Shown here: positions 7,879 to 8,379 of the stretch, piece by piece
Position numbering within the stretch: the first letter of the stretch is position 1
How the letters are laid out: each line of letters begins with the position of its first letter
Origin: Escherichia phage VB-EcoM-WM
Direction: 5' to 3' (one strand)
Sequence record: PQ014731.1
Length of the DNA: 64,000 nucleotides
The notes under the pieces: generated by a model
Seen by the model: the letters and a program-made list of their open reading frames with translations, nothing else
The model's database searches: none
Told to the model about the DNA's origin: nothing
Position numbers and translations under genes: made by a program

Positions 7879-8379
7879 GTGAAAATTAAAATCTTTGCTA
7901 TTATTTTGAGCGCATTTTTATCGCTGCCTGTTGTTGCAGCACCAAAACAAAAAGTATATCACACCTGCAAGCCATCAGATACTAAGGAAAACATTCTAGC
8001 ATGCAATATCTACAGGGAAGCTAGAGGAGATGGCACGATGGGTATGCTGGCATCTGGGTTTGCCACCCTAAACAGGAAATCTCATCCCAAATACCCGGAC
8101 ACTATAAGAAAGATTGTCTACCAACCTAATCAGTTTTCGTGGACAACCTACGGCAAAACTTTTAAGGTGACAGAAAAAGATTCATGGGATCACGCTAAAA
8201 GTCTTGCAAAGATGCTTCTAAAGGTCTATAATAACAACCATGTTGCATACATGGCTATGGATATAACAGGTGGAGCAACACACTACCATACGACCAAAGT
8301 ACGACCGAAATGGGCAAAAAAGATGCAGAGGACAGCTCAATTCGGGAGTCATATCTACTACAAGGAGCGCAATAAATGA
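7879..8379 (+). CDS. SleB-like cell wall hydrolase with signal peptide
   Basis: NIYREARGDG and QPNQFSW motifs typical of Hydrolase_2/SleB; hydrophobic N-terminus KIKIFAIILSAFLSLPVVAAP; start adjusted to GTG 7879 after RBS GGAG. Confidence 0.65.
   Translation: MKIKIFAIILSAFLSLPVVAAPKQKVYHTCKPSDTKENILACNIYREARGDGTMGMLASGFATLNRKSHPKYPDTIRKIVYQPNQFSWTTYGKTFKVTEKDSWDHAKSLAKMLLKVYNNNHVAYMAMDITGGATHYHTTKVRPKWAKKMQRTAQFGSHIYYKERNK

Follow-up and report, generated by a model that had tools for sequence, protein, structure and literature searches.

The DNA analysed here (the window: 64,000 nucleotides of Escherichia phage VB-EcoM-WM, record PQ014731.1) comes from a Vequintavirus and has about 96% nucleotide identity to rV5-like coliphages. 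On its forward strand, at positions 7879..8379, lies the coding sequence of a SleB-like, predicted exported cell-wall enzyme, which starts with GTG at 7879 and stops with TGA at 8377-8379. The precursor computed from 7879-8379 has 166 amino acids, a mass of 19.1 kDa and a pI of 10.0. The open reading frame was confirmed to be a real gene, far beyond what chance would give. A Shine-Dalgarno sequence, GGAG (7870..7873, forward strand), was read off the sequence 5 nt 5' of the GTG, and the arrangement of a hairpin, TTTGGAG and the start codon was likewise present in relatives. A longer, ATG-initiated reading frame from 7759 was considered as the true gene and rejected, because the homologues and every annotation begin at the GTG. 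The codon differences from the gene of phage MaxTheCat were 12 synonymous and 2 non-synonymous, a pattern that points to purifying selection. Virtually every rV5-like record carries the gene (115 at 95-99% amino acid identity). The gene, its signal peptide and its placement are already known from the rV5/V5 annotation and a discussion in 2020. A search of the window against Rfam gave no match.

Directly downstream lies a homologue of rIIA (8376..10358, forward strand; PHROG 612, E=1.4e-124), and its ATG overlaps the stop codon of the SleB-like gene (ATGA at 8376-8379). Because of this overlap, which was also seen in relatives, the SleB-like gene and rIIA are probably translationally coupled. 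A homologue of rIIB (10369..11574, forward strand; PHROG 609, E=3.7e-61) follows, and next after rIIB comes a RecD/Pif1-like helicase (11574-12944). The gene order (helicase, primase, polymerase) agrees with a location upstream of replication genes, in line with the sequence-only reading. That reading had placed the gene between a MoxR-like ATPase and rIIA. The SleB-like gene does adjoin rIIA, but the ATPase (6248-7438) is not its immediate neighbour, because a 126-amino-acid reading frame (7448-7828) and a hairpin (7842-7869) intervene. The rV5 orthologue of the 126-amino-acid gene has been reported to be similar to T5.083.

In Certrevirus the next, overlapping gene after the SleB-like gene encodes a 2-TMD protein of 62-65 amino acids, and Seunavirus-type loci have a membrane protein of 51-77 amino acids between the SleB-like gene and rIIA. 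When the small membrane proteins of these two genera were compared with the window by tblastn, nothing significant appeared (best E ~1), and a hidden reading frame would not fit after the SleB-like gene, since its stop overlaps the start of rIIA. On the upstream side, the 126-amino-acid gene was tried as a conserved partner and rejected, as it had no similarity to the upstream genes of BF23, CR3 and EC152. The module order terminator–SleB–(small TM protein)–(rIIA/rIIB)–helicase is new in the present analysis.

Directly 5' of the ribosome-binding site of the SleB-like gene, at 7842..7869 on the forward strand, we found a GC hairpin with a U-tract that resembles an intrinsic terminator and corresponds to 't003' of rV5. 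The terminator scan gave a stem of 7 pairs, 6 of them G-C, with the tail TTTTCTATTT. Folding gave an MFE of -16.8 kcal/mol (z=-2.1), and Table S4 of the rV5 authors lists t003 with a dG of -16.0. Of the 19 Vequintavirinae-type loci, 17 had a hairpin with a U-tract at the same position, and three mutually unrelated stem sequences occurred among them. No consensus structure emerged when the upstream hairpin was examined for covariation in 13 sequences with MAFFT and RNAalifold, as the stems differ wholly in sequence and length; the conservation claimed here is positional only and comes from per-sequence folds. This positionally conserved terminator 5' of the SleB-like gene is new in the present analysis. 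We propose that the hairpin is a leaky attenuator, and it may also simply close the upstream operon.

A sigma-70-type early promoter (TTGACT-17-TATAGT) lies at 3688..3716 on the forward strand and is the equivalent of rV5 P010, with the same sequence except for 2 bases. The rV5 authors list P010 as the promoter of the rightward gene block that holds the SleB-like gene, and its counterpart in the window would feed this gene as well. Their list has no promoter in the interval from t003 to gene 2, and our own promoter scan between the terminator and the SleB-like start found none. Promoter-like matches in the region were at chance level (22 versus 17.7 expected), and for this reason a match inside the gene (8204-8232) is given no claim. 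Judged from gene order, the SleB-like gene would be expressed with the early/middle rightward block. A Vequintavirus transcriptome was sought in the literature and none was found, and the literature likewise yielded no genetics of the gene.

The protein was found to contain the Pfam domain Hydrolase_2 (PF07486) at residues 51-161, with 69.4 bits (cut-off 27; E=4.3e-19) and coverage of profile positions 2-100 of 100. It also matched PHROG 938 'endolysin' (E=5.6e-27) and, by sequence, the SleB entries 4F55 and 4FET of the PDB (E=2.5e-6 and 1.6e-5). The mature catalytic domain, of the SleB/CwlJ (Hydrolase_2) fold, is encoded at 7939..8376 on the forward strand and has 146 amino acids, a mass of 16.9 kDa and a pI of 9.9. 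An AlphaFold2 model based on an 88-sequence alignment had a pLDDT of 95.5; an earlier run with a 6-sequence alignment (pLDDT 64.9) was set aside in its favour. With Foldseek at E<=0.001, the sole matches in the PDB were SleB 4F55 and 4FET (4FET_A/B), with TM-scores of 0.74-0.79 (target-normalised) and an rmsd of 2.7-2.8 Å for 4FET and 5.9 Å for 4F55. At the same threshold 48 viral SleB-domain models matched the fold.

Conservation and the alignment to SleB identified Glu47 (codon GAA, 8017..8019, forward strand) in the motif Y-x-E-A-R-G as the putative catalytic residue. Of 271 relatives, 2 had a gap in this column and the other 269 all had Glu; in SleB 4F55/4FET the counterpart of Glu47 in the alignment is the Glu of the motif YGESRGE. 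The homologues were collected with an exhaustive profile search and a profile-seeded search; a single-protein word-indexed search gave 5 proteins. Together, the domain, the fold match and the invariant Glu47 bear out the SleB/Hydrolase_2-type enzyme that the sequence-only reading had recognised. By tblastn, the family of predicted exported SleB-type enzymes is represented in 1331 GenBank phage records, including rV5-, T5-, phAPEC8- and PAK_P1-like phages.

In SleB the motif Glu is a catalytic, essential residue (PMC12331253), and by analogy the phage enzyme is probably a lytic transglycosylase. Some papers and records name the SleB-like gene 'N-acetylmuramoyl-L-alanine amidase'. This label does not fit, because the SleB literature gives lytic transglycosylase. 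The labels 'SleB' and 'spore cortex-lytic enzyme precursor' are misleading, because the protein fails the SleB equivalog test of NCBIfam (TIGR02869; 47.3 bits versus a cut-off of 236.5). The match covers model positions 83-201 of 201, and the N-terminal peptidoglycan-binding domain of SleB is absent from the phage protein. Also the spore germination setting of SleB is inapplicable, because the E. coli host forms no spores. Bacillus SleB needs the muramic-delta-lactam of the spore cortex, which E. coli does not have, and the phage enzyme is assumed to cut ordinary peptidoglycan.

Residues 1-20 (MKIKIFAIILSAFLSLPVVA; 7879..7938, forward strand) were predicted by a rule-based scan to be a signal peptide, consisting of the n-region MKIK (+2), IFAIILSAFLSL and PVVA/APKQK (the slash marks the predicted cut). 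The hydrophobic segment has 18 uncharged residues with a mean KD of 2.29, and its h-region is short, with 56% LIVFMW and 33% GAST. The single plausible signal-peptidase site in the protein is VVA/APKQ, after Ala20, and a lipobox Cys is absent from the signal peptide. Thus the scan found the charged n-region, the h-region of ~10-15 residues and the small residues at -3/-1 that characterise Sec-type SPase I substrates, and the signal-like N-terminal segment noted earlier from the sequence held up in the n-region MKIK, the 18-residue uncharged stretch and the VVA/A site. Residues +1..+3 of the predicted cut VVA/APKQK are shared with AQA/APKD, the site in E. coli OmpA. The c-region P-x-[VL]-A/ was kept in homologues of 33-53% identity (CR3 PALA/KD, EC152 PVLA/KD, phAPEC8 PVVA/KA), and the T5-like homologue has a textbook signal peptide ending in SSQA/SHD. 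A hydrophobic N-terminus was present in nearly all of the best 150 relatives. From these features the SleB-like precursor would be exported by Sec and cleaved by SPase I. The signal peptide of the CB7 homologue was already reported by Buttimer et al. 2020 (PMC7344957).

The alignment also revealed a lineage-specific Cys pair, Cys30 (7966-7968) and Cys42 (8002-8004), spanning 7966..8004 on the forward strand. Both residues were invariant in a 36-sequence Vequintavirinae-type alignment. Among 271 relatives, a Cys at about position 30 and Cys42 occurred together in 52, the alternative pair 39 and 77 in 179, and both pairs in 13. The two alternative co-occurring Cys pairs, which are new in the present analysis, fit an oxidising compartment and suggest periplasmic disulfides; for Cys30-Cys42 a periplasmic disulfide is probable.

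The sequence-only reading had regarded the absence of the gene from a lysis cassette as an oddity, and a holin/endolysin cassette was to be looked for elsewhere in the genome. The oddity was not borne out. Lying outside a lysis cassette means little in Vequintaviruses, because their lysis genes are scattered and form no cassette (PMC3606486, PMC7344957). Lysis genes do lie elsewhere, but not together: in MaxTheCat (96% identical) the endolysin is located beside DNA ligase, the spanins beside terminase, and holin candidates elsewhere. The canonical endolysin of MaxTheCat lies outside the region matching the window. A homologue of the MaxTheCat 'putative holin' with 2 TMDs was found at 37685..38053 on the forward strand (tblastn, 95% identity over 123 amino acids), about 30 kb from the SleB-like gene. 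In addition, a scan of reading frames and hydrophobicity gave a 78-amino-acid reading frame with 2 TMDs and a Lys/Arg-rich C-terminus (53679..53915, reverse strand), which fits the description of the putative holin gp129 of rV5 and was matched by that description alone (PMC3606486). The SleB-like locus is lysis-related rather than misplaced, because a holin-like membrane protein directly follows in Certrevirus/Seunavirus. CB7_83, a homologue of about 45% identity, has been reported to have counterparts in every genus of the Vequintavirinae and to be toxic to E. coli on expression, with the toxicity given as 'data not shown' (PMC7344957). The rV5-like phages have a separate, 156-amino-acid λ-R-like endolysin, LysECP26, that was shown to be lytic (PMC9728275). 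The sole endolysin candidate of Pseudomonas phage pf16 is a Hydrolase_2 protein (PMC5587285).

In our best reading, to which we give a probability of about 0.5, the SleB-like enzyme is an exported accessory lysin, a role that the sequence-only reading had also suggested, and is kept low by the conserved upstream terminator. We infer an enzyme that would be exported and cleaved, act as a transglycosylase on ordinary peptidoglycan, be expressed at a low level and have a role in lysis. Sec would export the precursor and signal peptidase I would cut it after Ala20, leaving a soluble, basic periplasmic protein of ~17 kDa that the Cys30-Cys42 disulfide probably stabilises. The gene would share its transcription with the helicase, primase and polymerase genes of the early/middle rightward block, and its translation would be coupled to that of rIIA. 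The dose of this potentially toxic product would be low, because only read-through past the terminator would reach the gene. Once in the periplasm, the enzyme would cleave glycan strands of the host sacculus with no holin required, and it could pre-weaken the wall or hasten its destruction alongside the λ-R-like endolysin, holin and spanins. An accessory rather than a main lysin is most plausible given LysECP26, the separate canonical endolysin of rV5-like phages. Against a lysin, an active exported enzyme encoded in an early operon should put the cell at risk of lysing too soon, and any restraint through the low dose or a need for membrane potential is speculative. A further point against it is that the present genus lacks the small membrane protein next to the gene.

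A clearly less probable explanation, which we nevertheless place first among the alternatives, is that the exported transglycosylase remodels the envelope, opening local gaps in the peptidoglycan or altering its turnover early in infection. Phage envelope complexes, such as the spanins or membrane assemblies associated with rII, could then form, or division could be blocked and the cell enlarged, by analogy with the transglycosylases that make space for secretion systems and flagella. This would suit a gene inside the early/middle block that is coupled to rIIA/rIIB and not to an endolysin, in phages that already have a full canonical lysis set, and the placement in the early region in T5-like phages and beside ligase in Pakpunavirus points the same way. 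However, no envelope-spanning partner was identified and the explanation is wholly inferential. The neighbour in the sister genera is a holin-like small membrane protein, and toxicity on expression suits a lysin equally.

It is unlikely that the enzyme is a SAR endolysin of the kind known from P1 (Lyz) and phage 21 (R), in which an uncleaved segment would tether the inactive enzyme to the inner membrane and release would await depolarisation by a pinholin. The composition of the hydrophobic segment speaks against it, with 33% GAST and 56% LIVFMW versus 55-65% GAST in the P1 Lyz/R21 segments, a heuristic comparison that is not decisive. The core ends in a helix-breaking Pro and a small-x-small VVA/A site conserved across genera, neither Cys is inside the signal segment, and no pinholin adjoins the gene in the present genus. 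In its favour, pinholin-like small 2-TMD proteins adjoin the gene in Certrevirus and Seunavirus, the hydrophobic region of the CR3 homologue is 65% Gly/Ala/Ser/Thr, and the Pakpunavirus homologue has an anchor-like N-terminus with no cleavage site. The position of a Cys 5 residues ahead of the putative catalytic Glu is also reminiscent of P1 Lyz, in which a disulfide cages the enzyme.

Quite improbable, in our estimate, is that the SleB-like enzyme, instead of being a redundant lysin, is half of a conserved early envelope module made up of the leaky terminator, the exported transglycosylase, and the small membrane protein and/or rIIA-rIIB. Controlled damage to the wall by the enzyme would then be tolerated, sensed or timed by the small TM protein or by the rII 'membrane integrity protector' proteins. 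If this were true, the rII genes would gain a periplasmic partner and a testable role in lysis timing.

A role in superinfection or competition, where the wall would be altered against secondary DNA injection or the enzyme freed at lysis would attack neighbouring cells, is very improbable. Circumstantially in its favour, the gene has its place in the early block beside the rII genes, which in T4 are tied to exclusion, and it is widespread among virulent phages. We know of no exclusion system with a SleB-type enzyme, the freed enzyme would be unable to cross the outer membrane, and the present analysis found no specific evidence for such a role. Applied from outside, recombinant Hydrolase_2 proteins of ladybirds had no limiting effect on E. 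coli (PMC7807722).

The role at entry that had been considered earlier, which would have the enzyme carried in the virion and digesting peptidoglycan at DNA injection, is the least probable of all: SleB domains do occur in structural-looking phage proteins of >1000 amino acids (e.g. Agrobacterium phage Atu_ph03, Rhizobium phage Palo), but a protein with a Sec signal peptide would leave the cytoplasm, where virions assemble, baseplate lysozyme-type proteins are already present, the gene lies outside the structural module, and the enzyme is unnamed among the virion proteins identified by mass spectrometry in the rV5 and CB7 papers, an absence that is not proof.

As a discovery the SleB-like gene matters little, since it has been annotated since the rV5/V5 genomes. 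Many virulent Gram-negative phages carry a predicted exported SleB-type enzyme beside a complete canonical lysis set. Should the enzyme prove to be a lysin that needs no holin and cuts ordinary peptidoglycan, its compactness and natural secretability would make it interesting for enzybiotic work, and phage lysis of Gram-negative hosts would gain a Sec-dependent branch.

Compared with known systems, the closest is gene 2 of rV5 ('SleB' / cell wall hydrolase), which has 98% amino acid identity (rV5, V5), 166 amino acids and a pI of 10 and lies beside rIIA. There is no difference of substance; it is the same gene in another isolate. The orthologues in Certrevirus and Seunavirus (e.g. CR3_087) are followed by the small membrane protein that is absent in the present genus. 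T5-like phages (BF23_00100, AKFV33 ORF81) and Pakpunavirus (MAG1 'sleB') likewise have Hydrolase_2 proteins that are small and carry an export signal at the N-terminus; their genes lie in early or DNA-metabolism regions, away from the recognised lysozyme/holin. These differ in having 33-40% identity and no rII neighbours; in addition, the Cys pair of the T5-like proteins is at 39 and 77, and the N-terminus of the Pakpunavirus homologue resembles an anchor and not a cleavable signal. Bacillus SleB/CwlJ (4F55, 4FET) share the fold of the catalytic domain, the motif Y-x-E-[AS]-R-G and, in SleB, a signal peptide, whereas Bacillus SleB has 24% identity, an N-terminal peptidoglycan-binding domain and no counterpart of the Cys pair of the phage protein.

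Among phage endolysins, LysECP26 / rV5 gp89 belongs to the same phage group, acts on the same substrate and is also small, single-domain and basic. In contrast to the SleB-like enzyme it is of the λ-R-like / Phage_lysozyme type, has no signal peptide, is encoded beside DNA ligase and is experimentally lytic (PMC9728275). SAR endolysins (P1 Lyz, phage 21 R) are similar in the hydrophobic N-terminal segment on a small muralytic enzyme, and their pairing with pinholins resembles the adjacent small 2-TMD protein of the sister genera. Their catalytic fold is different, and the segment of the phage SleB-like protein has the character of a signal peptide with a conserved cleavage site. Lys44 of Oenococcus phage fOg44 is a Sec-exported endolysin with a cleavable signal, which needs no holin pore and stays in check as long as the membrane is energised. 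It is of another catalytic family and acts in Gram-positive hosts, where the exported enzyme is the main endolysin, but its working principle is like the one proposed here for the SleB-like enzyme.

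For the region 6000-12000, 122 GenBank phage records share at least 90% nucleotide identity, the top matches being Escherichia phages JEP1 and MaxTheCat (Bas57) with about 96% across the full 6 kb. Since MaxTheCat is classified in Vequintavirus (Vequintavirinae), the window is assigned to the genome of an rV5-like virulent E. coli myophage, and its counterpart in MaxTheCat is found at roughly 49.9-113 kb. The SleB-like gene (7879-8379, +) starts with GTG at 7879, ends with TGA at 8379 and has 166 codons; a Shine-Dalgarno GGAG can be read in the sequence five bases 5' of the GTG. 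A longer frame opening with ATG at 7759 extends over the terminator and the end of the gene before it; this start was rejected, as all homologues and annotations use the GTG. Compared with MaxTheCat there are 12 synonymous and two non-synonymous codon changes, and the ORF is a real gene under selection. The coordinates given in the sequence-only reading were exact, and its SleB/Hydrolase_2 assignment agrees with the Pfam, PHROG and PDB matches. Its placement of the gene between a MoxR-like ATPase and rIIA holds on the rIIA side, where the SleB-like stop and the rIIA start share an ATGA overlap, but on the ATPase side a 126-aa ORF (7448-7828, +) and a terminator intervene. A near-consensus sigma-70 promoter match (TTGACA-17-TATTAT, 11/12) was seen at 6031-6059 (+), within an 89-aa ORF (5985-6254) and a short way upstream of the MoxR-like ATPase gene; the promoter table of the rV5 authors does not include it.

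The protein is a member of the Hydrolase_2 superfamily, matching Pfam Hydrolase_2 at 69.4 bits (cut-off 27; E=4e-19) and PHROG 938 'endolysin' at E=6e-27, and it aligns by sequence to the catalytic domain of Bacillus SleB (PDB 4F55, E=2.5e-6; 4FET, E=1.6e-5). An AlphaFold2 model from an 88-sequence alignment had a pLDDT of 95.5. In Foldseek against the PDB, SleB catalytic domains were the sole matches at E<=0.001, with target-normalised TM of 0.74-0.79 and rmsd of 2.7-2.8 Å (4FET) and 5.9 Å (4F55), and nothing else fell below E=1; among viral models, 48 proteins with a SleB domain matched, spread over many phage groups. In an alignment of 271 relatives, Glu47 of Y-R-E-A-R-G is Glu in all 269 sequences with a residue there, and it aligns to the Glu of YGESRGE in SleB, which we take to be the essential glutamate. 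[quoted passage not shown] Identity as a SleB equivalog was rejected (TIGR02869, 47 bits against a cut-off of 236.5). The TIGR02869 match is confined to the C-terminal, catalytic portion of the model, so the peptidoglycan-binding domain of SleB is absent. The superfamily is very large, with 20,088 cluster representatives reaching E<=1e-3 and 9,009 of them reaching E<=1e-10, and the best 150 relatives are mostly 140-250 aa long with hydrophobic N-termini.

The signal-like hydrophobic segment noticed earlier was confirmed by rule-based analysis, with n-region, core and cleavage site all present. The N-terminus consists of MKIK (+2), the short, strongly hydrophobic core IFAIILSAFLSL and then PVVA/APKQK (slash, predicted cut), the sole site with acceptable -3/-1 residues where the hydrophobic stretch ends; we predict a Sec signal of the textbook type. 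The APK after the predicted cut equals the residues following the E. coli OmpA cleavage site. The c-region is kept in homologues at only 33-53% identity (CR3, PALA/KD; Seunavirus EC152, PVLA/KD; phAPEC8, PVVA/KA), the T5-like BF23 homologue has a classic signal of its own (...FSSQA/SHD), and the CB7 orthologue has a reported signal peptide (PMC7344957). A lipoprotein reading was rejected, as there is no lipobox. The predicted mature protein has 146 aa, 16.9 kDa and a pI of 9.9. Among the 271 relatives two alternative cysteine pairs occur, 39+77 in 179 sequences and about 30+42 in 52, with both pairs in 13 and just one half in only a handful. The lineage of the window phage carries C30+C42, with no variation across a subfamily alignment of 36 sequences. 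Paired and mutually replaceable cysteines of this kind suggest disulfide bonds, which in turn would place the enzyme outside the cytoplasm; we found no earlier description of the alternative pairs. The protein is very probably an exported muralytic enzyme of the SleB fold.

The gene does lie outside a lysis cassette, as had been pointed out, but this is uninformative because the lysis genes are scattered in this phage group. In the MaxTheCat record the spanins adjoin the terminase (1-683), the putative holin is at 84 kb and the endolysin adjoins the DNA ligase at 124.5 kb; the rV5 and CB7 papers likewise state that a lysis cassette is absent (PMC3606486, PMC7344957). A homologue of the MaxTheCat putative holin is in the window (37685-38053), with the endolysin and spanins outside it. 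LysECP26, the canonical rV5-like endolysin, is a λ-R-like protein of 156 aa that was lytic by experiment (PMC9728275). A gp129-type 78-aa ORF (53679-53915, -) has two TMDs and a C-terminus rich in Lys/Arg, in keeping with the description of rV5 gp129 as 'putative holin'. It is directly downstream of 53949-54470 (-), homologous to the 'putative glycosidase' of MaxTheCat with 92.5% aa identity, and the two could be a second, unrecognised enzyme-plus-holin pair.

Synteny was compared in 19 Vequintavirinae-type loci from IMG/VR and GenBank records. The order kept is hairpin/terminator, SleB-like gene, an optional small membrane protein, optional rIIA-rIIB and helicase. In Vequintavirus the gene runs directly into rIIA, in Seunavirus-type loci it is followed by a 51-77-aa membrane protein and then rIIA, and in Certrevirus it is overlapped by a 62-65-aa protein with two TMDs and the rII genes are absent. 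The Certrevirus small protein was earlier proposed as a class II holin (Buttimer et al., PMC7344957), and the locus in these relatives looks lysis-related. The Seunavirus-type membrane protein is holin- or pinholin-like and lies at 4036-4209 in locus L009 and at about 2995-3250 in loci L019, L020, L022, L023 and L025; one example, MKSILLLCVCIIPYLVILSLTQWMFWEQVSGAYALGLLAGIYIVRKARKRNPINNCK, has a basic C-terminus and is annotated as hypothetical only. No counterpart of it was detectable within the window. It is improbable that the enzyme works together with the neighbouring rII or small-TM genes as an envelope module that sets when lysis occurs.

A GC hairpin with U-tract (7842-7869, +; MFE -16.8 kcal/mol) immediately precedes the Shine-Dalgarno. 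It is terminator t003 of the rV5 paper, which predicts no promoter from t003 to gene 2 (PMC3606486); the early promoter P010 (3688-3716, +) is listed by the same authors upstream of the block. A hairpin with U-tract is present at the equivalent position in 17 of the 19 loci, with three unrelated stems (CCCCGC/GCGGGG, AGCCCC/GGGGCT and GGCTCAG/CTGGGCC). Formal covariation analysis of these hairpins gave no consensus because the stems cannot be aligned, and the conservation concerns position only. The simplest reading is that the gene would be reached by read-through transcripts only, a supply that would suit a toxic exported enzyme; the terminator may equally just end the upstream operon. In phAPEC8 (Phapecoctavirus; locus L008, about 3921-3950) a good promoter match (TTGCAA-17-TATACT) comes after the hairpin, and the gene there, unlike that of Vequintavirinae, seems to be served by a sigma-70 promoter of its own.

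We propose that the precursor would be exported by Sec and its signal cleaved, giving a single-domain transglycosylase, probably disulfide-stabilised. Low-level synthesis from the early/middle block would supply a periplasmic enzyme that attacks the sacculus with no holin required and complements the λ-R-like endolysin as an accessory lysin. We put the probability of this whole account at about 0.5. Two points weaken it: toxicity on expression was reported only as 'data not shown', for the CB7 homologue of about 45% identity (PMC7344957), and Bacillus SleB depends on a cortex-specific substrate that is absent from E. coli. A non-lytic remodelling role is the foremost alternative, although an unlikely one. 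A SAR-type tethered endolysin is less likely again because the cleavage site is conserved; the hydrophobic segment contains 33% Gly/Ala/Ser/Thr against 55-65% in two SAR endolysin segments, a heuristic comparison only. A role in exclusion or competition is very improbable. Peptidoglycan remodelling at entry, one of the two ideas of the sequence-only reading, is hardly credible because the protein is predicted to be exported and is unnamed in the virion mass-spectrometry results of the rV5 and CB7 papers, the gene is outside the structural module, and baseplate lysozyme-type proteins are already present.

The observation of this gene is correct and already known. Gene 2 of rV5/V5 is the same protein (98% identity), annotated as 'SleB' or 'cell wall hydrolase', and a 2020 paper (PMC7344957) described the signal peptide, the conservation across the subfamily, the toxicity and the position outside a cassette, with later mentions in 2024 for Septuagintavirus and in 2025 for a UPEC phage. 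The minor additions are the covariation of the cysteine pairs, the terminator's conserved position and the small membrane protein of Seunavirus-type loci.

Elsewhere in the window, 41460-44035 corresponds to about 2.5 kb without an annotated gene in MaxTheCat (record 90052-92583), and its counterpart was called 'non-coding' in the rV5 paper (PMC3606486). At 42090-42370 the motif ATAGTTGCC(C/T)TG is repeated several times, in either orientation, together with a perfect 18-nt inverted repeat (42141-42158/42275-42292), and the pattern looks iteron- or origin-like; within 41460-44035 there was no Rfam match and no notable tandem array. The MaxTheCat DNA polymerase CDS (record 67370-70423; roughly 17.5-20.5 kb in the window) is annotated as two joined pieces, and therefore an intron or other interruption may be present in the polymerase gene of the group. 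Between 16 and 23 unannotated 'Campylobacter phage' records with Campylobacter jejuni as host (MG065655, MG065658, MG065661, MG065677 and MG065682, among others) show about 95% DNA identity to the window phage and carry the SleB-like protein at 98% identity, which points to mislabelling or contamination, or else to a surprising range of hosts.

With tblastn the protein matched 1331 phage records, 115 of them rV5-like at 95-99% identity and the others below 60%, including Seunavirus, Certrevirus, Phapecoctavirus, Justusliebigvirus, T5-like Demerecviridae and Pakpunavirus as well as Vibrio and Aeromonas phages. In pf16 a SleB-type protein is the sole endolysin candidate (PMC5587285). As it is found across rV5-like, T5-like, Pakpunavirus and other phages, a predicted exported SleB-type enzyme on top of the standard lysis set is common in virulent phages of Gram-negative hosts. 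The T5-like phages carry the gene in the early region, away from lysozyme and holin, whereas in Pakpunavirus it adjoins the DNA ligase. Bacillus SleB shares the catalytic fold and the motif Glu, but it has neither cysteine pair and possesses the peptidoglycan-binding domain that the phage protein lacks.
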